Shown here: positions 1 through 62,421 of the stretch, in pieces
Position numbering within the stretch: the stretch's first letter is position 1
Layout of the letters: each line of letters starts with the position of its first letter
Virus record (IMG/VR): IMGVR_UViG_3300028591_000191
Location: 7,189-71,188 of that record
Reading direction: 5' to 3' (one strand)
DNA length: 64,000 nt
Origin: a virus
Lineage: Duplodnaviria; Caudoviricetes
The notes under the pieces: generated by a model
What the model saw: only the letters and a program-made list of their open reading frames with translations
What the model was told of the DNA's origin: nothing
Database searches by the model: none
Translations under genes and position numbers: made by a program

Positions 1-435
1 AAACAATCTATAACATTTAGGGACTTATATCGTACAATGCCAATAGAGGTTGATTACGGGCTCTACAAGCGCATATTAGAAGAAATGTGCAGAATTATAC
101 TAGACGCAATACTAAACAGCTCAGACGGCTTTAAAATGCCTTTTGGGCTAGGTTTTATACAGGTAGGAAAATATCTACCTAAAGCGCTTAATGATAAGTC
201 CCTATCTGTAGATTACAAAGCTAGTCGAGAATATGATAAACGAATATATCATTTGAATGAACATTCGAATGGGTATAAGTACAGATTGTACTGGTCTAAA
301 ATACCTCGCACATTCCCAGACAGATATAAATACCAACTATGTTTCGTAAGATAGAACAAGCGTAGACTAGCACAACTCATATTTAACAAACAAGACTATT
401 TGGATATAAATGATATACAATTATATAAAGTGTGA
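1..435 (+). CDS. crAss-like IHF/HU-family DNA-binding protein (5' partial; one in-frame TAG read as Gln)
   Basis: Frame open from base 1 (KQSITFRDLYRTMPIEV...). TAG at 352-354 continues as NKRRLAQLIFNKQDYL to TGA 433-435. The FKMPFGLGFIQV segment resembles the HU/IHF beta-arm, and the position before tail genes is typical of crAss-like phages. Confidence 0.6.
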
Positions 436-1348
436 ATCAGTCATGGCTAAGATTATGGCTGATTTAGATTCTACTGAAGTAAGGCATAGGACCTCAGACA
501 TCAGGGAATGGATATTCGAAGCCATAGATAAGATTGGTGCGCCGATGTAGTATATCAGTAAAGAATCAGGGGTAGATGGAACCCCAATATTTTCAATACA
601 GGATTATCAAGTCCCCATTCCAGCAGACCTTGTTGTATTAGACGGTCTAGCTTACTCTACTAAAGAGAATGGTCCTTGGATTCCTATGGTAAAGAGTACG
701 GCTCTGTTTAAGCAATAGAAACGCGTTAAGAGGCCTTCTTTTACTGGCACTGACGTACTTATCCACGACTTCGAAAATAAAGCCGTAGAGAGCCCAGAAA
801 GGTTCCCAGATCCAATTACTACCAGAGGTATTACATCACAGTCTCAGATGTACACTATCAATACAACAAAGTACATCAATAGAATGGCTGGTGATGAGAT
901 ATTACATCAGAAACCAGAGTACTTCATTAAACCTGGTTGGGTAGTAACAAACAAAGACAAAGGATATATTAAATTTGCTTACAAAGCTATAGCAACAGAC
1001 GAGAGAGGATATCCTTTGATTCCAGATTTAACATCATATCAGGAAGCTGTATATTGGTATGTAGTAATGAAATTAGCGTTCCCTAAGTTTATGTCTGGTA
1101 CACTTAGTGGTACAAGTTCTAAATACTCAGCTAAGTTCTCTAAGGATACATACTTCTACATCCAACAGCAATGGAACTTCTATAGAAACCAGGCTTATGC
1201 AGAAGCTATGATGCCTACAGCAGATGATATGAAGAATATAAAGAATGATTGGCACAAACTTATCCCAGACTATGAAGCCGACGATACATTCTTTAAAGAC
1301 ATAAATAAAGAACAGATAACCTATAACGACTACTATCATGGATATTAA
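410..1348 (+). CDS. Tail ring / tail tubular protein, 312 aa (TAG=Gln)
   Basis: ATG 410 overlaps the previous gene. In-frame TAG at 548 and 716 joins it to track ORF 848-1348; ends TAA. N-terminus MIYNYIKCESVMAKIMADL...IREWIFEAIDKIG recalls crAss ring proteins. Confidence 0.7.
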
Positions 1349-4300
1349 TAAAGACCAGTAGGTCAATACGTTCTTGAAAGGCATGAATACTGACCTATCT
1401 GACGCCTTGATAGATAATAGTCAGTATAGATATGCTGAGAATATCAGAGTAACAACTAATACAGATCACAATACTGGCGAGGCTAGACTTATAGAAGGTA
1501 ATACTAAGATAGCTGAGTTCCAGGGAAAACAAATAATATATATAAACTCTATACGTGACTACGTTGTAGTAATATGTGCACACACAATTACAATAAACAA
1601 TGAGGAAACAGAGTGTTGGAGTTTATATGTTAGCGATAACAAAGGAGAGGACTGGACACTTGTATTTGGTCCATGTACAGATACACTATGGGACAGTTTA
1701 GACACAGTGTCAATCTCAGGTGTAATGAGATTTGAATCTGAGAATAACATTAAGCTGTATCTTGCAGACGGTAAACATGTTATAATACCAATGTGGGTGG
1801 ACAAATCCCACTGGCCATCTGAAGTTCCTACAGAAATGGATACTCTCACAGGGTATCAAGATACATTCCTTCCTGCTCCTGTAGCTTCTATAAGTAACAA
1901 TGCAGGACACCTTAAACCAGCTAAGGTACAGTATATATACAGACTGTATAAGCGTGGAGGCGCTGCTACTACTCTGTCTCCTGTAGGTAACGTGTTATCT
2001 TTGTATAAGAATGATTCTGAAGGATATTCAGATAAAGAGCTTACAAATAAAGCTGTTACAGTACGAGTATATTTTGATGGCGGTACTACAGGATTAAATA
2101 GAATCCAACTGTTCAGAATTACTTACATGTACAATGGACAGACTCCTACTGTACAGAGAATCGAAGACAAGGAGATTGATCCTACACAAGAATACGTAGA
2201 TATAGAAGACTATGGAGATAGCCAAGAGGAGCTTGGTATAAGCGAATTACTTGGACTTACTCAGATGCAGATTAAACCTAAGATTATTGAGAGCAAGGGT
2301 GATATACTTTTTGCTGCTAATCTTAAGTATGTGCAGGATGATGTAGATAAGATGTTCGAAGGCTACGACACTCGTTCATTTAGCTCCGGTAACTATTGGA
2401 AATTAATATCTACGCCTCCTGCCTCTACTACAAAATATCAATGGGATTCTACAAGTTATGTATGGAGAGAAACACAAAACAATATAACTCTTGAAGAATA
2501 TCCTATAACATTCTCTGTTTCTCAGAACGGACTTATGTCCACATTAAATACCCCTCCAGCTCAAGCAGAACTGTGTCATAGGCAGTTTAATAGTCCAGAC
2601 TATACATATAACATTGATTATTGGCGTCCAATATCAGAAATATCTGATGGAACCTTTCCTGCGCCGTTCATTACAACAGAGATTGGTGGTAAGGGTCCAA
2701 ATATTAACTGGAGACTTGTAGAGGAAGACGTTGTAGTAAATCACAATGGTTGGGATGTAACACAACAGAGAAACTTCTATAAGTGTGACGAGACCTATCG
2801 ATTTGGTGCTATATTATACAACGATAAAAACCAAGCATCTTCTGTGAAATGGATTGCTGATATACGTATTCCACCTAGAAAGCCAAACGATTATACGTTT
2901 ACGTCAGAAGGTGTATGTACAGTAAAGATGTACAACATCAAGTTCTATATAAAGAATTTCCCAGATAACTGTAAAGCAATATAGATTGTACAATGCCCTA
3001 GACGTTTTGACGACAGGCACATTATTACACAGGGCATCGTATCAGCACCAATGAAGATGTCTAAGAGTACAGGAGAAACAAACTATATGTGTCCTTCTGG
3101 CATTATGTCACTCTAGTATATATACGCTAATAACGAAAACAGTGATATTTCTACAGAAACAGCATATATAAGAACTGCACAATCTGCTAGAGATACAATC
3201 TAGTTTGCTTCGCCTGAATACGCATACCAAGCTGACGATATAAAGAACGTAATGAGTACGTATAAGAGTCAGATATCGGTAGAACACGTAGCTGCATTTA
3301 CTACACCTGGAACATGGCAAACAGTAAGTAACATATCAGTTTCCGCTCCAGTATAGACTATAAGATCTACGAACAGTAAAAGCGATATAGGATTTAGATT
3401 TCGTAGAGTGTCTTATAATAATAAATTGTAGTTTTATGTTGATGTAAATACGTTGCAGGATGAAGTAGCTAGCGATGTACTAAATTCATCTGTAAACAGA
3501 AAATATGATGGATCCGCGTTAAAACGCGAAATTATTAATCAAGGGATAATAGGAAACGTTACAAATGAAGAATGGTTCTACGGATACACCGCTTTTAACA
3601 GAGTTTTGCCAAACGGCATTTTATACGACTCTGATGCAGTTATTACATATCCTTAGAACATAAGCGCAATAGGATATCCTACTGTACCTGATTGGAATAA
3701 ATTTGCAAACGGAGATAAAATTCGTTTTATGGATGACGTGACACCCGTTGGTACATATAGTTATATTAACTGGTCGTACCCGTTAGCCCTTGATCAAAGC
3801 GGATCATCTACTGGAGATATGGCTAGAACGCTTACCGATACTGGTATTACAGACAACAATAAGGGAAGATCTGCGTTCCTATATCCAGTAGGAACCGGCG
3901 GTAAATGTATGGTTATTAAGTTTGACAGTAATTTCTTATGCGGTGGACAGAATGCATCATACAGAATGCCTGCTACTTCAGGACAGTTTGCTCCAATACA
4001 CGTAGCTAATATAGTAAAACTATGCAATCCTTATGGTGGATATAGTAAACAGGCTATACAGAATAGTACATATTACAGTAGAGGCAATAATATAAACAAG
4101 TCTGACTTTGACGCTTATAAGAATCGTGAAGGTGCTGCTGCAACAGATATGTATGAGATAACCGCTACTGGAGGTGATTCTTACGTAGGATGGTTTAAGT
4201 ATAATGCCAACCATATGTGGTTTGACCCTACGTATGTTACAGCTACTAAGATGGCTTCTGTGTATGAAGTACCTCTTGATATGGACATAGATATATATGC

Positions 4301-5489
4301 TCAGTGTGGTAATCCTTATGACCCTTCTAATACTACGAATGGTTATTATATACAGGATGAACCCGCATCTATATCATACAGTGGTTACTCACAGGAGAAA
4401 CCTGCATATCAGTACAATACAGCATATAACCAAGATCCAAATGTAATTACATACTCTGCTATAGAACAAACAGACATATCTAACTACGATTGGGATGTAC
4501 GTATACACAATTCTGATGTTAAGACAAACGGAGAGAATATCGATAGCTGGCTTACATTCAAAGCTATGAACTACCTTGATGTAGATTCTAGACACGGAGA
4601 GATAACCAACCTTAAGTTGTTCAAAGATAGACTTATATTCTGGCAGAACAATGCTACTGGTATACTTAGCTCTAATGAACGTACTATGTTGAATGATTCT
4701 GACGGTAACCAGATTATCTTAGGTAATGGTGGTGTACTTCAGCGTTCAGATTATATCTCTACTATGTATGGTATGAAGCCTAAGCAGTTTGTTACTACTC
4801 AATCTAATACTACATTATACTGGTGGGATGGAAGTGATAAAGAGATTCTTGCATACAGTGAGAATGGCATACTTCCTCTTGCGTCGTTAAAGGGTATTAG
4901 AAACTACCTTAATGAACACGACGAGAATAGTCATCCTTATATGTTCTATGACACACAGAACAAGGAGCTTGTATCAAGCGTAGTAAATGATGAAAGTGTA
5001 GTATATAGCGAACAAATAGAAGCATTCTCTTCTATATACAAATTTATGCCATTGTACGGAACAAATCTAACTACTGATATATTAACAACAACTACAGATA
5101 GTGTATATAAGTAGTGGAGCGATGCTCAGAATGCTCAGTTGTTTGGTGAGAATATATATCCAAAGATACAGTATGTTGTAAATAGTCAGAATATGTTCCC
5201 TAAGGTATTTGATATACAGACGTTCGGAGGTAGATTCTATGGTGGAGACGACATTCATAATCTTCACTTTGATTATAAGACACCTCTTAAACAACATAGT
5301 GAATGTACTGGTACTGCTGTTACTAATAGAGAGTATGACTTTAGATTGGACATCCCAAGAAACAACAACGATTCATACGGAGGTCGTATGAGAGGAAAGA
5401 CTATGCAGTGTGAGCTTAGTTCTACTAATAACTCTACAGACTTCTCAATACAGTATATTACAACTAAATACAGAATGTCATGGAGTTAA
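1338..5489 (+). CDS. Tail muzzle / stabilisation protein (P22 gp10-like), 1383 aa (TAG=Gln)
   Basis: ATG 1338; track ORFs 1374, 3453, 3729 and 5139 are one frame separated only by 8 TAGs; ends TAA. Motifs NTFLKGMNTD, RFESENNIKLYLADG, FKAMNYLDVDSRHGEITNL and RMRGK are characteristic of this family. Confidence 0.8.
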
Positions 5490-7480
5490 AAGAACTAAAA
5501 CAAATAAACAACGGAATGATACCTGCGGAGAAACCTACTATAGAAGAAAAGGTTGCTTCAGGAATAGGTGTAGAAGGTACTACTGGATAGTCTACTCTGG
5601 CAGATAGAAAGTATATCAAAAATCTACCTAAGTTTGCCGATGGTGTAAACGTAAATCCAAACGGAATATCCTCTGGACATTACAATTTTGCTGGTAGAAC
5701 AAGTGCCTCATCTTAGCTTGCCAGTGGTCCTACTAAAATACCAAATAATCTTCCTACATCTAGCGGTGGAGGCACTAATCTTGGTAAAACTCTAAGTAAC
5801 GTTGCTAGTGCTGCAGTTCCTTATGCAGGAGCTTTAATGTAGAATGCAACAGCTGCAGTTGATTTTGTTAGTAGTATTGGTTCTGCTGGTAAGTTTAATA
5901 AATCTGCAGATGACTTACTACAAGAAGCTGGTGGAGCAGAGGGTAATATTGGAGGTGTGTCTTATCAAACACAAAACGAGATAAACGCTCAAGGAGTGTC
6001 TGCACAAACAAGTGCAGAGAATAAGGCTAACACTGTCGGTCTGATGGGTAAAGGAGCTGCTCTTGGCGCTTCTTTAGGTATGGTTGCAGGACCAGTAGGA
6101 AGTCTTGTAGGAGGCGCTGTAGGCGCTATCGGAGGTCTTGTGGGAGGATTGTTCGGTAGTTCTAAGAGAAAGCGTGAGATGCGCCGCAGAATAGCTGAAG
6201 CACAAGACAAAGCGTTACGACAGAATGATTTCTCAAGAAATGGAGCTCTTACTTCTGTATTACAGTAGAACTATGCCAGGGAGTACGGAGATACAGAATC
6301 TCAGTCTTTATACGGATTTAAAGATGGCATATTACCTGGGTTTGTAAATGGATTTACTCCTAATTGTAAATTATCAAATGGAGAGCATGTAATATTGCAC
6401 GACCCAATTGGAAATCCTATTGCAGATATACCTGTTGGACGCGGAAGAGATAATAAAGATACATTAAAAGCTTTTATTCCTAATAACGCTTCAGTTATAA
6501 CAAACAAAAACGGAGCTACAGAATATTTAGAAAGAACAGGCGACATTAATGGAGCCGAATATTTAACAGCTATGAATATATAGAACAAGAAATATAAGAA
6601 CGGTAAGTTGCCTGGATTTAGCGGAGGTAAATGGGGTGTTCCAGAATGGGCAAACTTGACTGGTAATTTAATACCATTTATTGCAACTGACATTGAATAT
6701 AATAAAGCTAAATCATAGCCACTTGGCAGTTATACAGCAACTCATTCAAATCCTAACGCTAGTATAGCTAGCAACATGATGTCGCAAAGACGATATAATC
6801 CATATCAATCATATAGAGACGTATGGGATTTGTATGCAAAAAACAATTACGCTAGCAAAAATAACGGTTTAAGTTCTTCGCAGCGTAATTTATTGCGTAC
6901 AACTAATTATGCAAACACTCTCAACAACATCTTCAAGATAAATGATCACGCTCAGCAGATGAACAATCAATATCTTGGAGAGAATGCTGAGTTCTTAGAT
7001 AATCAAGGACGATTTAATACTCAGCTCAGACAGACAGACGATATTAAGCATTATGATACTTATACACAATCTCATGGAGCATAGAGTGAAATATTAAGCA
7101 AACTTTCTGCACAAAAGTGGAATATTTTTCAGAATTTTTTCAAAGGTGTTGCTGATCTTGATCTTTACAACTATATGAAGAATATGTTTGATGCAGATAG
7201 AAATGCAGATAACGCTAATCGTGCAGCAAAATATAAATTAAATCAGCCTGCTGTTGTAAAGAACCCAGATATATATAATTATAATCTTGGAATCCCGGCT
7301 TCGTCTAAGTATGAGCAAGCTATTGCAAGTAATCTTGCAAAGCATTTCCAGCAACCTGCAGCACAATCGTTGGAAGAAAAACTTCTTATTCCAGATTTGC
7401 CAATGTTCAATTTCTCAGCAAATATGTTTAAGAAGGGTTCTGTTAGTCGTAGAGCTGCTAAGAAAGGAGGCCGTAAATGA
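5480..7480 (+). CDS. Virion cargo/ejection protein with glycine zipper, 666 aa (TAG=Gln)
   Basis: ATG 5480; one frame through track ORFs 5957, 6395, 6776 and 7175 with 7 TAGs; ends TGA. Contains GAALGASLGMVAGPVGSLVGGAVGAIGGLVGGLFG; follows the muzzle gene. Confidence 0.7.
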
Positions 7481-45576: not shown

Positions 45577-46285
45577 ATGCTTATATCCTTTTTGATATCG
45601 TGGTTGATCCACCAACGATATAAGTGATATACTTGTCCACTTCAGGGCGGGACGTTGCCACACAAAGTTTGATACCGGCACTTATACGTTGAGTACGTGG
45701 CGGTAAGATGCTCTATTACAGTTGAGCAAACTGTTATAGTGTTTCTTATTTTGTTGTAATTCTGGTAGTGCTATGCTTATGGGAAGCGCGTTTGCTTTAA
45801 CACGTAGTTATATCTTTATATTCCTCTCCGAGTAAGTTAAACTGTTGTGAAGCTCAATCAATATAACGGGAGTCCAACGGTAGGACATTTATACCCATAA
45901 ATGCTAAAGGGTCAACTTAGCGCTAAATGCCAGTTTATGCATCATGCATCAAACACGAAACACAATATTGAGTTTTTTCTTAATACTTCCTTGCATCGTT
46001 GGCAAAATTTTCAACTAACTAGAGCTCAAGGCAGAATTTTAGTTGAACTAATGTACATAAATGCAAGTAAAATTTAACCAATAAAGTGTAGAATATCCTT
46101 AGTCGTATTTTCCAAATAGATGTCAGACATTACTACTCTGCTGTTGTATCCTGGTCTTGCGATACCAAGTTAGGCACAGCTGCCCCAGTTCTATGCTTTT
46201 TTCCGGTCAGAACAATCAATACCCGGCTGCTGTTAACGCATGCTTACGCCCCCTTTGTTGACTTTGCCGTTATCCATTGCGGCTG

Positions 46286-46356
46286 CGCGTGGTAGGTTAC
46301 GTTTCGTTATCGGACGGTCTCAGAGCTCCATAACTCATCTCAGACCCTACGGCGCG
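46286..46356 (-). ncRNA. Variant type I hammerhead-like ribozyme candidate
   Basis: Stem I GTAGG(G)T/ACCTAC extended by CGCG/CGCG, core CTGAGATGA, stem II GTTAT/ATAAC, then GAAACGTA (palindromic mini stem III). Confidence 0.35.
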
Positions 46357-47962
46357 TTGTTTTCTTCTCTTGGATGCGCTTACTCCACCCTCATTATTTA
46401 TAGTGCACGAATACTGGAGGAATTCCACCTCATACGATTGCTGCCTTGCATCTTAAAGTTTCGCTTCGCCGAATCCTTTTCACCAGCGAACCATCGTTAG
46501 ACGGACTAGTTACTCATTCTCTTTACCCCTCCGAGACAGGGAGGTGGTTTCACTTCGCGATAAGATTTATCACCCACAATTAACGTATACGACTTCGTAA
46601 TCTCTACCGAACACATAGATTTGCTGTCTATGCTCTGATAGGATTTACCTTGTCTATTTGCTTCTCAGGAACGGTTGGCACTCGATTTCTCTATCATACG
46701 TCTAAAATGGTTATGTTTCTTCAATACAACAGAAGGACACTTTTCTAAGGCGTTGAACATAACGTAATAGATTTCATAGAGGGACATCAATTTTTGTTAA
46801 ACATGTTAATTTCATCTGGCTACTTTCATATAGTTTTGCTTAAAGACTAAGTACATACCGCACACGAGCTTACTACTCTCGCTGATATAGTATATAAGTG
46901 TCTACTACTATATTATCCTTTACAGACGTTGGCGATCTCCTTCTATACTGGTGTGTATAGTTCTCGAATCGACCTGGAAATAAGCTAATGGCTCTGCCTG
47001 CTTTTGACTGTAAGGTTGTCATCCTTTGACTCCAGCATTTCCTCTGGTACATCTCCAATCTATATTACTCACCACCGCTTACCGTAGCTTTCATACCTTT
47101 AGAATAACTCTTTCACCGCGGAGTTCACTCGCGTAGCATTCAAGCCTCTAGGCCCTACTTCGCATTCAGTTCCTGCATCGAACTGGCATGTCATTTTACT
47201 TTTATATACCGCATAAACGACTAAAGCCTGGCGGTCACATCTCCTAATACAATCAGCTATACCTCATCCCTGGCACCTTCTTTTGGAAAGTGTGCGGATT
47301 CGTATATCATCATGTTACCATTTTAAACTCTCACATGCTCTTTTACGAATCTTTTCGAATCGAACGGCAAGGTTTCAAAAAAGCGACGTAGTTACGGTAC
47401 GCCCCATGGAGTATTACTCTCCTGGTATTGTTTATACTATTCAATGTAATTCTTCATCCCTTCATACACGCCCTGGATTGCGTGGAACACTAGATTACAG
47501 CTTAATAGTGAATTGATACATCATACAAGTTTTTGGCATCTTCTTGTATGGGCAACTCGTGTAACGTGATTCTACTACTATGTATCCTTGTAATAGATCT
47601 ATCGATACGGTTCAGTTTTGCGCTTCTTGCGACTTACTCGTCTTCCTTACCAATATACCTCCTCTCTGCATCCTACTAAGTAGAGTTAAGTCTGGCAAAG
47701 GTATAAAGAACCTTGCTGGTTGGTATAGGTGTTGGGGTCTGATACAGACGCTCTCCCCACTTACTACATGTGATTCAGGTATTGAGTACAGATACCCATG
47801 CAGCATTTCATCCTACCTTTTGAGTTTGCCTTTGGGGCTCGACATATTCTCGGATCAAGTATTACTCAGTTCGCGCCGGCTAATGAGACCGTTTACATGC
47901 GCTGACCAGTTCCCTACGGGAGGGGATGTATGAATCCTCATACACCCCCACTGCGGAGTTTA

Positions 47963-48430
47963 CTAACGTTTATAGACTTCCTTACCGTCGACTGTAAGGA
48001 TAATGGAAGCTTTAGGAGCTCCAATAGTGTCTGTGGTGTTCTCCGTACGATCCACCATATCATGATTCACAGGCATCCGTGACATACTGTCTGGATTGAC
48101 AGCTGCCATTTCATTACCTGTACCGTCATGACTGATATGAGGTCCGTGACGATAACGAGTCTTCCATTTCACTTTCGTGATATAACGGACACTATCGATA
48201 ATGTTGATAGAATCCTTGGGAGTTGCTCGTGATTTAGAGGCCTTCTTGTCCAGATCTAACTGGATATCAAGTGGCAAAGAGTCACCGACTATGACCGGAA
48301 CTGGTCGATAGTCGGGCACATTCGCAGCTGCAATTGTGTTTTGTGGCATGTCGTTGAACTTGACCATTGCTAGTCCAGCTCCAGCGATCATTAAACACAT
48401 GCAGCACAAGATGGTAGTAAAACGCTTCAT
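47963..48430 (-). CDS. Hypothetical protein with N-terminal signal/TM segment (155 aa), ends TAG TAA
   Basis: MKRFTTILCCMCLMIAGAGLAMV hydrophobic leader. Confidence 0.7.
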   Translation of the reverse strand: MKRFTTILCCMCLMIAGAGLAMVKFNDMPQNTIAAANVPDYRPVPVIVGDSLPLDIQLDLDKKASKSRATPKDSINIIDSVRYITKVKWKTRYRHGPHISHDGTGNEMAAVNPDSMSRMPVNHDMVDRTENTTDTIGAPKASIILTVDGKEVYKR

Positions 48431-58913: not shown

Positions 58914-59210
58914 TTACATAGAAATTTGAGCTAGTTCCTTCATAATACCACGTGGAATGGTATATTCAGGATGATTACGTAGAACACCGAAGTAGTACTT
59001 GCTATCTGGGCCTTTGCAAGCTTCAATAGCATCGCGCATCGCTGTACCATTGTGATTGGTTACAGCCAGGAGAAGTTCATCGCTTTTAACAGCGTCACCA
59101 TGCTCTTTCTTGTACAGCTGTACACGAACACATGGAACTCCCTTCTCTTTGAGAACATTTTCAACCTCAGACACTAGTTTAGCGTCTTTTGTTACAAGTT
59201 TTTTACTCAT
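58914..59210 (-). CDS. Hypothetical protein (98 aa)
   Basis: Clean ORF starting 25 nt after the predicted hammerhead cleavage site. Confidence 0.75.
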   Translation of the reverse strand: MSKKLVTKDAKLVSEVENVLKEKGVPCVRVQLYKKEHGDAVKSDELLLAVTNHNGTAMRDAIEACKGPDSKYYFGVLRNHPEYTIPRGIMKELAQISM

Positions 59211-59229: not shown

Positions 59230-59287
59230 AATACCGACCATCGTCACCTAGGTTTCGTCTTAATCTTCCAAGACTCATCAGGGTATT
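59230..59287 (-). ncRNA. Hammerhead ribozyme, type I
   Basis: AATACC CTGATGA GTCTT-GGAAGATT-AAGAC GAA ACC-(11 nt)-GGT C GGTATT: complete core, three stems, GUC cleavage triplet. Confidence 0.85.
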
Positions 59288-59322: not shown

Positions 59323-59604
59323 TTATTTGTGTTCAAGTTGTTCCTGAACTTTTGGCAAATATTGGCGATATTCTTTGCCAGTTTTAGCTGATTTACGGAT
59401 AATAAAATATTTTCCGTTACCAGAGATGTAGATAGGATATTTAGTCCCATCACTTGCCACATATGTATATGGCGTAGTCATAAAGGCCTCTTTTGCTTTT
59501 TTCTTAGAGGTCTGCGTAAATGTGTTGCCATTTCTGACAACATCTTGTGCGTATACTGCACTACCTAATAATGCTAAGCATACAATTAAAAATAGCTTTT
59601 TCAT
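59323..59604 (-). CDS. Secreted/periplasmic protein with signal peptide (93 aa)
   Basis: MKKLFLIVCLALLGSAVYA|QD, a Sec-type signal peptide with an AxA site. Confidence 0.8.
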   Translation of the reverse strand: MKKLFLIVCLALLGSAVYAQDVVRNGNTFTQTSKKKAKEAFMTTPYTYVASDGTKYPIYISGNGKYFIIRKSAKTGKEYRQYLPKVQEQLEHK

Positions 59605-60502
59605 ATGTCAATTTGAATTGATTTCAAATGAAGCACTGCTATTTTCACAAACCACAGTGCTGAGGCTTAATATTAACTTTTTAATTTTAAAGATTATGTC
59701 TATGCCCTCTGGCATATAGATTGATACTATATGAGTGAAACGAATGTTCATAGAAAAGTAGAGAGGTCGTCACCGCTGTGACTGAAACGAATACGAATAA
59801 TATCAACAACTCATTAAATAAGTACGTAAATTAATAAACCTCTCTAATGGTAAAACCCCACGGTCTTCTCAGATGGTGGGTAAAATTTCAAAAATATTAC
59901 ACCACTGTGTATGCCTATAATCAAAAGCAAATTTATATGAATAATAATAGACTTTCAATGAAAAAGGGGATATGGTTTACCAATTTAGCACCTACCCTCC
60001 GTAGAATGCGTATTGATAAGACCAGTATCCCCATAGTTTTACGTCTTTCTCAAGGACGGCCGTTTTCATGTACACAATTGATACCCACTAGTACATATCA
60101 ACTGTTACACCATCTGTCTCTATTGAGAATTTCTCCTGCACGTTATGCGAAACGTATCATTGGTTTACGGTCAACCAAATAGGGAGATGTTTCGACTGAT
60201 GAGTAATTTGTGAGTATTGTCTGAGTCAACTCACTTGCGGTCTCTCAACGTACACACCGCTTTGGCTATCCCACTTAATTTGGGCTTAACGACTTAAGCG
60301 AGCCGTTTTTGGTGAGCCTAGCTTTTCATCTCACCTGGAGGACTTCTTGCAGATCTCCTCTTTAACTGCCTTATGCCGAAGCAGCTTATGGTAGCAGTAT
60401 ACCAGAGCGTTTCAGTTTATCTTACGCACAACTTGATTGATTTCCGTCTTTCAGCAGATTCTCAGACGCCCTCTTTCACAATCATGTGGCCTGCTTATTT
60501 TT

Positions 60503-60557
60503 AACTGTTTCGTCTTAATTTTCAAAGACTCATCGGATGCCTAAAGGCATGACAGCT
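60503..60557 (-). ncRNA. Hammerhead ribozyme, type III (U4C core variant)
   Basis: AGCTGT C ATGCC-TTTA-GGCAT CCGATGA GTCTT-TGAAAATT-AAGAC GAA ACAGTT. Confidence 0.8.
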
Positions 60558-60618
60558 TAAATAATTTAAATACACCTATTCTCACGAACCAGTGTATTTT
60601 AAAGAACATGTTTAATGT

Positions 60619-60867
60619 CTAGAATTGGATGGACTGAATGTTCCCGTTGTTATACGGACCTGAAACAGACTTATTACCCTGATCATCGATAACAAGTTTA
60701 CCAATCCAATGTCCATTACGGAATACATTTCCTTCTGTAACAATCACTTTCCTTCCTAAGAAGGTGTAATTAGACCTGCCTGTGGCATTGGCACGTCTAT
60801 CATGTGAAACTCTTACGTGTGCCCCATCTGATGAGGCAACAGCGTTTAGTGCAAATCTCTTTCTCAT
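60619..60867 (-). CDS. Hypothetical protein (82 aa), TAG stop
   Basis: Clean ORF. Confidence 0.65.
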   Translation of the reverse strand: MRKRFALNAVASSDGAHVRVSHDRRANATGRSNYTFLGRKVIVTEGNVFRNGHWIGKLVIDDQGNKSVSGPYNNGNIQSIQF

Positions 60868-61016: not shown

Positions 61017-61160
61017 TTAGTATTCCTGAAATGGAGTAATAATCCAATTATCTAAATATTCACCTAAATATTCTTGAACTTCATCTTCTGGTACATAACG
61101 TAGTTTACGCTCTATCCAATTAAGAATTGTGTCCAATGAATAAACAGGCCAAGGTCTCAT
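61017..61160 (-). CDS. Small protein (47 aa, not in ORF track)
   Basis: MRPWPVYSLDTILNWIERKLRYVPEDEVQEYLGEYLDNWIITPFQEY*. Confidence 0.55.
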   Translation of the reverse strand: MRPWPVYSLDTILNWIERKLRYVPEDEVQEYLGEYLDNWIITPFQEY

Positions 61161-61179
61161 TGGTACAAATACTATAAAA

Positions 61180-61290
61180 CTATTCATACTCTACAGGAAT
61201 ATTAATGACTTTCTTGTGACCTGGCCATCGAGTCACTTCACGTACATAGGTTTTACCAGCGATGGTTCTGGCTTCTTTATCATACCACAT
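61180..61290 (-). CDS. Small protein (36 aa, not in ORF track), TAG stop
   Basis: MWYDKEARTIAGKTYVREVTRWPGHKKVINIPVEYE*; preceded by the TTATCAAAA leader motif. Confidence 0.55.
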   Translation of the reverse strand: MWYDKEARTIAGKTYVREVTRWPGHKKVINIPVEYE

Positions 61291-61437
61291 ATATTTTGAT
61301 AATTAAGTGAATAATCAAAGAAAACACACGATATTCACATATGGTGTGTGTTTGAGACACGCTTGTCTCGTGAAGATTCTTCCATTTCCTCTAACTGATG
61401 TCTGTGGTTATTGTTAAAAATGACGAATACTTTCTAA

Positions 61438-61483
61438 ACAAAAAGCGGGAGAGTTGCTGAGTACAGACCAGCATCGCTCTCCC
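61438..61483 (-). terminator. Putative intrinsic terminator
   Basis: GGGAGAG/CTCTCCC stem with an inner TGCTG/CAGCA helix, followed by GCTTTTTTG on the - strand. Confidence 0.45.
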
Positions 61484-62005
61484 TTTGCACATAGTTTGCT
61501 CCTAGTGACTAACCACGTTGTTTTATCGTCTTGCAAACTAGACTAGCATACACAGGCAGCAAGAGGTGGATCTCAACCAGTACGAGCAAATGTAAACGCA
61601 TCGTGTCCACGGTCACTGTAACTATACTCAACCTTGCATTTCACACATCTACACTGGTCTTTCAGTGTTGACCAAGATGTGTTTAGCCCAATAATACACC
61701 ATTTTCGGTCGTGAGGGTCGTATCCGGCTTTACGGGCGGCCTTTGCCTTGAAAATGATGTATTAGTGTGTGCAATTTAGTTTAACTCCAGGGTGTACAAC
61801 GGTCAAATCATACACCCTATCAATGTTACATAAAAGCAATTTGATAAAATGTTTGATGCCAATTCAGTACGGACAATTGGCTGCCCATAATGATTTGATG
61901 TACATAGAATTTGGATAGTATGCAACATGGAGTACACGTACTCTAACACCCATATATAAATATGGCTAGTAGCAGTTAACTATCACTGTTTTAAAGAGTT
62001 AAACA

Positions 62006-62064
62006 ATACTGTTTCGTCGTAATCTGCCACGACTCATCAGGGGACATCTACATCCCGACAGTAT
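62006..62064 (-). ncRNA. Hammerhead ribozyme, type III
   Basis: ATACTGT C GGGA-TGTAGATG-TCCC CTGATGA GTCGT-GGCAGATT-ACGAC GAA ACAGTAT. Confidence 0.88.
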
Positions 62065-62097
62065 GAGCAGTTTAAAGTCTTGCTCAGGACCAATGGA

Positions 62098-62421
62098 TCA
62101 CTCGGCATCCTCCTCTTGTGGCGTAGGAGTTTTCTCTGCGTGCTTCTCTTCTGCCTCTTCCTCATCGATAACCTTTAACTCATCATCAAATGCTGATGTC
62201 TGAGTTGAAGAATACTCACGAGTGAACACACGAAGAATAGCTTTCATGAGTTTTAAATCATCATCAGAGATGTATTTCTTCTCTTTAGCCTCAGGCTTAT
62301 GAGAGTTTAACACATCATCAACACGATTCTTTAACTCAAACATCTGTCGCATCTCACGATTGTTAATGTTACGTATGTCAGTAGACATGACACAAAAATC
62401 GCTGTTTAACTTGATTTCCAT
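62098..62421 (-). CDS. Hypothetical protein (107 aa), acidic tail
   Basis: Clean ORF. Confidence 0.75.
   Translation of the reverse strand: MEIKLNSDFCVMSTDIRNINNREMRQMFELKNRVDDVLNSHKPEAKEKKYISDDDLKLMKAILRVFTREYSSTQTSAFDDELKVIDEEEAEEKHAEKTPTPQEEDAE

Follow-up and report, generated by a model that had tools for sequence, protein, structure and literature searches.

What does a self-cleaving ribozyme do when a phage genome places it between the end of a small gene and a long stretch without any gene? The roles of phage hammerheads are still largely unsettled, and the question is raised by a hammerhead at positions 62006-62064 of the window, by which we mean the whole 64,000-nucleotide stretch of viral DNA that was analysed. 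A sequence-only reading of this DNA had seen here the third ribozyme of an array that punctuates one early transcript and releases mRNAs and possibly non-coding RNAs from the spacers. We think it likely that the ribozyme belongs to a unit made up of a gene, a hairpin, the hammerhead, a large structured RNA (ncRNA A) and a terminator, and that it would free ncRNA A. The direct basis of this explanation is sequence, fold, family membership, covariation and a conserved arrangement; from these we infer cleavage in the infected cell, the positions of the transcript ends and whatever function RNA A may have.

The source record is a linear IMG/VR virus contig, ~70% complete. Its DNA polymerase is 70% identical at the protein level to that of crAssphage cr272_1 and 62% to that of cr131_1, both classed as Crassvirales, Suoliviridae, Oafivirinae, and by such comparisons the virus would be a rumen crAss-like phage (Crassvirales) with the Suoliviridae/Oafivirinae as the nearest group. 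Contigs of relatives with these elements measure 99-107 kb, and three are complete; many metagenome contigs with members of the A family seem to be of rumen origin, going by their accession series. A blastn search of the 5.2-kb region against GenBank phages returned no near relative, a literature search found no paper joining 'hammerhead' with 'crAss-like', and the end repeats of the relatives give no injection polarity. Elsewhere in the window, a 2.2-kb gene-free region (45600-48000) has no Rfam match at E<=1.

The unit to which the hammerhead (HH3) belongs consists of the following elements, given with the evidence by which each was placed:

62098-62421, minus strand: 107-aa ORF that supplies the coding sequence of the HH3 unit (ORF list)
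62064-62086, minus strand: hairpin UGAGCA-AGACUUUAAAC-UGCUCA directly 5′ of HH3 (sequence)
62006-62064, minus strand: HH3, type III hammerhead (RF00008, 45.1 bits; MFE fold; covariation)
61436-62005, minus strand: ncRNA A, ~570 nt, structured and ORF-free (conservation, covariation, fold)
61436-61483, minus strand: terminal hairpin of A with a U-run (alignments)

Read on the minus strand, HH3 has the sequence AUACUGUC/GGGA-UGUAGAUG-UCCC CUGAUGA, with the cut at the slash, and continues after CUGAUGA with GUCGU-GGCAGAUU-ACGAC GAAAC AGUAU. It starts at 62064, which is indeed 34 nt past the upstream stop codon (TGA, 62100-62098). Stem III (AUACUGU/ACAGUAU) has the open end and stems I and II are capped, and the MFE fold obtained with ViennaRNA is the canonical three-way junction with this same layout. 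The core is complete, with CUGAUGA at 62040-62034 and GAAA followed by a C that pairs into stem III, so that HH3 has every residue by which we define a type III core (C3-U4-G5-A6-N7-G8-A9, G12-A13-A14 and the A15.1-U16.1 pair). The cleavage triplet 3′ of stem III, GUC at 62059-62057, agrees with NUH (last residue not G), and since C17 is position 62057 the cut is predicted between 62057 and 62056, exactly where the sequence-only reading had placed it.

The Rfam model Hammerhead_3 (RF00008) matched HH3 with 45.1 bits (E 1.2e-7 in a 6-kb search with all families) and the second type III copy of the window, HH2, with 42.3 bits (E 7e-7). The earlier observation of a canonical hammerhead is confirmed; both scores lie under the gathering score of 48.5 bits. 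For HH3, which falls just short of it, the shortfall is located in the 8-nt loops, where aligner confidence falls, and orthologs in L029 (52.6 bits) and L126 (49.8 bits) are above the cut-off. It is because HH3 is under this curated cut-off that a default scan of the window at gathering scores reports a permuted tmRNA and tRNAs only.

Beyond the single sequence, the pattern CYGATGAGTCNTNGNANATTANGACGAAAC matched at least 119 IMG/VR contigs. Among the matches listed, 128 family copies were inspected; they are mostly type I hammerheads preceded by UAAAA, with 19 of type III. In a set of 28 type III members, 94.5% of cells are paired compared with 74.5% in shuffles, the percentage being inflated by the descriptor that picked the set, which demands 3-5 bp per stem. 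All three stems covary (5 of 5 pairs in stem I, 4 of 7 in stem III and 2 of 5 in stem II), and no shuffle equals the observed values for cells paired, double-change cells or covariation score. HH3 is probably a functional type III hammerhead from a widespread phage subfamily, with cleavage predicted from sequence, a degree of confidence that we attach jointly to the whole explanation.

Hammerhead-like and other ribozyme matches also turned up in the related phages. In cr131_1 (NC_055902.1, 440-491, minus strand) a hammerhead-like sequence of the same subfamily scores ~22 bits on RF00008 at a place with no annotated feature, and a hammerhead-like match of ~22 bits on RF00008 is present in cr272_1 (NC_055903.1, 5514-5578, minus strand). 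The hammerhead-like element heading A in L125 (5139-5300) is regular in its core, stem I and stem III, and ~38 nt with several small hairpins replaces the simple stem II. A RAGATH-1 hammerhead in L120 (1663-1727, minus strand) reaches 52.8 bits with a cut-off of 56.3, and L049 has a weak twister-P1 match (6140-6198, 29.6 bits). The same islands of relatives may hold further self-cleaving RNAs.

The other two hammerheads of the window lie downstream in the direction of transcription, within the following series:

61180-61290 and 61017-61187, minus strand: small ORFs upstream of the 82-aa ORF (ORF list)
60619-60867, minus strand: 82-aa ORF that supplies the coding sequence of the HH2 unit (ORF list)
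60569-60598, minus strand: hairpin ahead of HH2 whose loop is conserved, AAUACAC-UGGUUCGUGAGAAUAG-GUGUAUU (pattern)
60502-60558, minus strand: HH2, type III hammerhead with the core CCGAUGA, U4C (RF00008, fold)
59961-60501, minus strand: ncRNA B candidate, ~540 nt, ORF-free (fold; partial conservation)
59323-59604, minus strand: 93-aa ORF upstream of HH1 (phrog_16207, E 3.7e-12)
59230-59287, minus strand: HH1, type I hammerhead (family pattern match; RF00163, 16.8 bits)

A 30-nt family pattern that fits all three copies occurs three times in the window and not once in 100 shuffles. Searching all 71,188 bp of the record for the core with a closed stem II likewise gave these three copies only, all on the minus strand and within 2.83 kb, which agrees with the earlier statement that they share the transcribed strand within 2.9 kb. 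Their loops II (GGCAGAUU, UGAAAAUU and GGAAGAUU) and the compensatory pairs of stem II (GUCGU/ACGAC versus GUCUU/AAGAC) are also as had been described. What is not supported is the use of this likeness as a sign of a local array: at least 119 IMG/VR contigs have this 30-nt core, and the resemblance of the loops is therefore a trait of the subfamily.

Compared with RF00008 and RF00163, the window copies have the same core, helices, cleavage triplet and loop-loop layout; they differ in that all score below the cut-offs (45.1, 42.3 and 16.8 bits), HH2 has C4 and HH1 a stem III of 3 bp. HH2, with its predicted cut at 60551/60550, is otherwise intact in the core, and since its ortholog in G001 has the canonical CUGAUGA, the C4 of the window is derived. 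In HH1, stem I (AAUACC/GGUAUU, 6 bp) is open, stem III consists of ACC/GGU only with an 11-nt loop, and the predicted cut (59236/59235) lies 25 nt ahead of the ATG at 59210; Hammerhead_1 (RF00163) gives it 16.8 bits (E 0.014 per genome) with a cut-off of 34 bits. The derived U4C of HH2 and the short stem III of HH1 make the activity of these two less certain than that of HH3.

One could go further and regard some or all of the copies as relics that no longer cleave. U4 is a conserved core position at which changes reduce activity in classical mutagenesis, so the derived C4 of HH2 would fit such decay, as would the 16.8 bits of HH1. Against this stands the perfect core of HH3, and C4 itself recurs in 10 of the 128 family copies (among the matches listed), in several unrelated contexts and with stems intact. 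The odd stem III of HH1 (CCUAG...CGAUGG) is likewise retained in the orthologs of G001 and L094, with 5 bp in L120, and a weak stem III is common in active natural hammerheads (PMC3088659). We regard a collection of relics as very unlikely and hold to the reading in which HH3, at least, would cleave.

The idea of one continuous, first-injected transcript with three ribozymes is not supported. A clear intrinsic terminator is present at 62539-62516, upstream of the 107-aa ORF, and terminator-like hairpins with U-runs stand between the ribozymes at 61483-61436 and 60032-59961, so that each ribozyme is probably in its own short unit. The arrangement suggests separate short units, with read-through possible, and not a single RNA carrying all three. 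An exact 12-mer, considered as a promoter motif common to the stretches behind the terminator-like hairpins, had two occurrences only. The HH3 unit would then comprise the small gene (62421-62098), the hairpin (62086-62064), the hammerhead (62064-62006), ncRNA A (62005-61436) and a terminator-like hairpin. HH3 would cut at 62057/62056 as the RNA is made, leaving a message that ends in a hairpin and a 2′,3′-cyclic phosphate, and freeing ncRNA A with a 5′-OH and with stems I and II of the hammerhead as its 5′ end. In this manner the hammerhead would disconnect the folded RNA from a translated mRNA and set the 5′ end of A, the 3′ end being set by the terminator or, in some relatives, by a second hammerhead. 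HH2 appears to act likewise for a less conserved RNA B, and HH1 would part two mRNAs.

The upstream parts of these units are conserved as well. The 107-aa ORF is kept at 72-79% nucleotide identity in L072, L120, L124, L126 and L127, with no match in Pfam or PHROG, and stretches homologous to the 82-aa ORF occur in L029, L130, L132, L150, L157, L172 and L173. The hairpin 5′ of HH3 is common to or covarying in ten loci: the same hairpin precedes type III hammerheads in L141, L143, L152, L181, L187, L060, L078 and L194, and the L133 version covaries (UGGGUA/UGCCCA). After cleavage, the upstream RNA would extend ~7 nt beyond this hairpin. Because a hairpin lies ahead of nearly every type III copy examined, the cleaved message would in general end in a hairpin with a short cyclic-phosphate tail. 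The HH2-type hairpin is found ahead of hammerheads in L153, L191, L130, L132, L030 and L036, and its pattern GGTYYGTGARRATA has three matches in the window with 0.26 expected.

Hairpins with the loop GGUYYGUGARRAUAG occur in the window at 60569-60598 and 59633-59660 (minus strand) and also in L120, L094, L200, L157 and G001. They are found after small genes and just ahead of hammerheads of both types, usually followed by a U-run, and may represent a phage-specific terminator or protein-binding hairpin.

The segment behind HH3 is free of genes, as had been claimed: between 62005 and 61291 the minus strand has no ORF >48 aa in translation table 11. With TAG read as Q or TGA as W, no frame >98 aa lies within either spacer, and the longer recoded frames near them are only adjacent annotated ORFs prolonged across a hammerhead or into the AT-rich gap that follows B. 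The earlier idea that non-coding RNAs are released from the spacers is well founded for 62005-61436, which is a conserved structured RNA; for 60500-59961 it is plausible and weaker. The ncRNA A measures 621 nt including the retained ribozyme body, with a conserved core at ~61930-61440. A blastn comparison with the loci of the hammerhead pattern yielded blocks of 75-100% identity with unrelated inserts between them, and in the alignment near-invariant blocks alternate with hairpin inserts of variable length. Patterns derived from two invariant blocks matched 8 and 11 IMG/VR contigs, that of the terminal loop 11 IMG/VR and 54 metagenome contigs, and these collapse to 50 unique sequences, among which 33 are non-redundant and cover the full length.

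The RNA ends in the hairpin GGGAGAG-CGAU-GCUG-GUCUGUACU-CAGC-AA-CUCUCCC followed by GCUUUUUGUUU. The loop is near-invariant and the stem covaries, with GGGGAAG/CUUCCCC and GCUG/CAGC in L133 and L181, and with the inner GCUG/CAGC changed to GUUG/CAAC. A terminator scan skipped this hairpin because of its long loop, and its terminator function was judged by eye.

Covariation in the core was counted with a hand-written structure on 34 sequences that have both flanking blocks. Of the cells 93.5% are paired, compared with 86.8% in shuffles, 15 pairs are changed on both sides, and 0 of 500 shuffles equal the observed value on any of five measures. Sliding the helix partners by 1-3 columns lowers pairing to 17-54%. 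The base of the variable arm covaries in 7 of 7 pairs and an 8-bp helix, ACACAUCU/AGAUGUGU, in 6 of 8; in an inner hairpin C-G is swapped to G-C in six sequences, and the long-range helix GCACACAC/GUGUGUGC has one compensatory change and four wobbles. Some conserved helices are invariant and hence uninformative, and a possible GGUC/GACC pseudoknot in the core (helix 4) shows no covariation among the 34 sequences. The first long-range helix, P1, begins 2 nt past HH3 and pairs GUUUAACUCU with GGAGUUAAAC beyond the second conserved block. Matched changes in P1 can be seen by eye in L152, L143, L187, L158 and L186, and a generic longest-helix test for it was no better than shuffles in this AT-rich RNA. 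The fold of the RNA remaining after cleavage has a z of -3.4.

These data bear on whether the ORF-free segments act as DNA, for instance as an origin, a packaging site or promoter arrays, with the likeness to hammerheads incidental. The region is AT-rich in places and has repeated hairpins, which such elements might share. The compensatory changes, on the other hand, keep RNA pairs including G-U on one strand, the hammerhead E-values are in the range of 1e-7 and all elements lie on the gene strand, which leaves a purely DNA-level role scarcely credible.

A cmscan of the A spacer with the 4227 families of Rfam gave no match at E<=10, and the loop pattern had a single, chance-level match in 185,579 prokaryote genomes. 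With no match beyond chance in Rfam, GenBank phages and prokaryote genomes, A looks uncatalogued and limited to uncultured phages. Its invariant loops (UGGUC twice, GACCA once and GUCUGUACU) may be sites of inter-molecular or protein contact. The view that A, and perhaps B, is a new phage-only class of large structured RNA of rumen crAss-like phages, with a function of its own in early infection and matured by a hammerhead at its head and sometimes at its tail, seems to us evenly poised between right and wrong.

How tightly are hammerhead and RNA A coupled? A type III hammerhead heads 16 of the 33 non-redundant members of the A family. In the 1.3 kb upstream of the remaining members, about half, the descriptor used finds no canonical hammerhead, and some of these members have other conserved motifs at the head; the ribozyme is thus not obligatory for RNA A. 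In L133 (4107-4722), A has no U-run after its terminal hairpin and 53 nt further on there is another type III hammerhead, so that the RNA is predicted to be cut out at both ends. The excised molecule, ~557 nt long, would bear a 5′-OH and a cyclic phosphate.

Such ends, 5′-OH and 2′,3′-cyclic phosphate, are the substrates joined by RtcB-type ligases. Together with the position of the L133 RNA between two ribozymes, they might be taken to mean that hammerheads acting in pairs cut out segments for ligation into circular RNAs of the retrozyme or viroid kind. In the window, A ends in a hairpin with a U-run and the next ribozyme lies 0.9 kb on, past several ORFs; moreover, circular or spliced products of clustered phage hammerheads were sought by Perreault et al. 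and none were found (PMC3088659). Circle formation is accordingly highly improbable.

Two further motifs lie close to these ribozyme positions. In L120, L124, L072, L146 and L147, upstream of A, an unclassified conserved UAAUUUUGU-UCACUGAUAAAUAGGUGA follows a module hairpin and occupies the position of the hammerhead in other A members. In L067, L130, L132 and L153 a conserved motif, GUUAGUCAUGUGGGUAGCUCAGCAGCAUGAC..UUAAACGAACACUGAG, is present just 3′ of the type III hammerhead, with a loop CUCAG complementary to a downstream CUGAG in pseudoknot-like fashion. Both are without Rfam match.

Another reading would have the hammerheads only punctuate or tune mRNAs, through 3′-end trimming or through the decay rate of messages from small early genes, with the ORF-free stretches being structured UTR or terminator without a function of their own. 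It agrees with the published picture of clustered hammerheads around single genes (PMC3088659), with HH1, which lies between two ORFs and has no ncRNA, and with the poor conservation of B; the hairpin before nearly every type III copy would also suit protection of a message 3′ end. It does not explain the near-invariant blocks, long-range covarying helices and invariant terminal loop of A in ~50 sequences, a constraint far beyond what a UTR needs, nor does it account for the hammerheads on both sides of A in L133. Since A is present without any hammerhead in about half of the members, it must be considered an entity in its own right. We judge tuning of mRNAs alone unlikely, though less so than the other alternatives, and retain the unit in which HH3 would free RNA A.

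For B the case is different. It ends in a GGGGAUA...UAUCCCC hairpin with a U-run (60032-59961) and its fold has a z of -3.6. Conservation extends only over the 5′ ~250 nt and only to the complete relative G001, in which the positions of the hairpins are kept and their sequences differ; a 32-nt pattern designed for more relatives found G001 only, and the B slot of other relatives holds different non-coding sequence. With G001 as the sole, partial relative, B stays a candidate. The B spacer, too, gave no match at E<=10 in the cmscan with 4227 Rfam families. It includes the hairpin module GCG-UAAGAUAAACUGAAA-CGC at ~60436-60405 (minus strand), with an invariant 15-nt loop and a covarying stem, which is also present in 10 viral contigs, among other places at the head of certain A-family RNAs. 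Loci with the UAAGAUAAACUGAAA module are L067, L072, L124, L128-L134, L138, L146 and L147, and the module is common to large ncRNAs that are otherwise unlike, namely B and, in other phages, the 5′ extension of A.

Hammerheads of mixed type that flank genes in prophages and phages were described by Perreault et al. in 2011, three clustered arrays were shown to cleave in vitro, and processing of long phage transcripts was proposed as their role (PMC3088659). The hammerhead array as such is therefore known, and like those arrays the present one has types I and III close together on one strand, flanking single genes or short gene blocks. It contrasts with them in that the host is a crAss-like phage, that large ORF-free RNAs instead of genes stand behind two of the three ribozymes, and that terminator-like hairpins separate the units. 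The nearest precedent for a ribozyme-defined end is HHphage of the haloviruses HF1/HF2, where an early transcription unit begins shortly after the hammerhead and the 5′ end of an early transcript is <=3 nt from the cleavage site (PMC3088659). There, however, the virus is archaeal, the ribozyme heads an mRNA instead of an ncRNA and its core is a variant. The hammerheads described here add to a known family, and their arrangement is likewise of a known kind; less ordinary is that they are coupled to a large structured RNA that is uncatalogued.

As to RNA A, the obvious comparison is with GOLLD (RF02032) and ROOL (RF03087), large phage RNAs near tRNA islands whose function is unknown (PMC5737381, PMC12286853). 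The likeness lies in the size of 0.5-0.8 kb, the lack of ORFs, an intricate fold and a phage location near tRNA and tmRNA genes, and by this analogy A may be placed among the large orphan phage RNAs. The GOLLD and ROOL models found no match at E<=10 in the A and B spacers, and the GOLLD model, which describes a conserved 3′ domain, none at E<=0.01 in the whole record. A is often headed by a hammerhead, for which our literature search found no such description in GOLLD or ROOL. GOLLD-like RNAs do occur in the same island of related ~100-kb crAss-like phages, in L049 (3417-3830, 85 bits) and G002 (158-555, minus strand, 96 bits), with a cut-off of 150.

A second parallel comes from the crAss-like Cellulophaga phage phi14:2, which makes abundant and stable early long ncRNAs, long intergenic regions among its small early genes being highly transcribed (bioRxiv 10.1101/2020.03.07.982082). 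These RNAs have no sequence relation to A or B, and a search of the early lncRNA region of phi14:2 for hammerheads found none. Within the highly expressed region of phi14:2 (L203, NC_021806), positions 4031-4502 match tmRNA with 46 bits (cut-off 47, E 4e-16).

With gene, hairpin, hammerhead, large RNA and terminator conserved in this order, the ribozyme acquires a specific task that can be put to the test, namely to free a structured RNA and to fix its 5′ end. The crAss-like phages are dominant viruses of the gut and rumen and their early biology is poorly known. GOLLD and ROOL have recently been shown to form RNA-only cages. RNA A, as an uncatalogued family with clear covariation in ~50 sequences, adds to the few large orphan RNAs of phages and, if the interpretation given here is true, would represent a class comparable in standing to GOLLD and ROOL.
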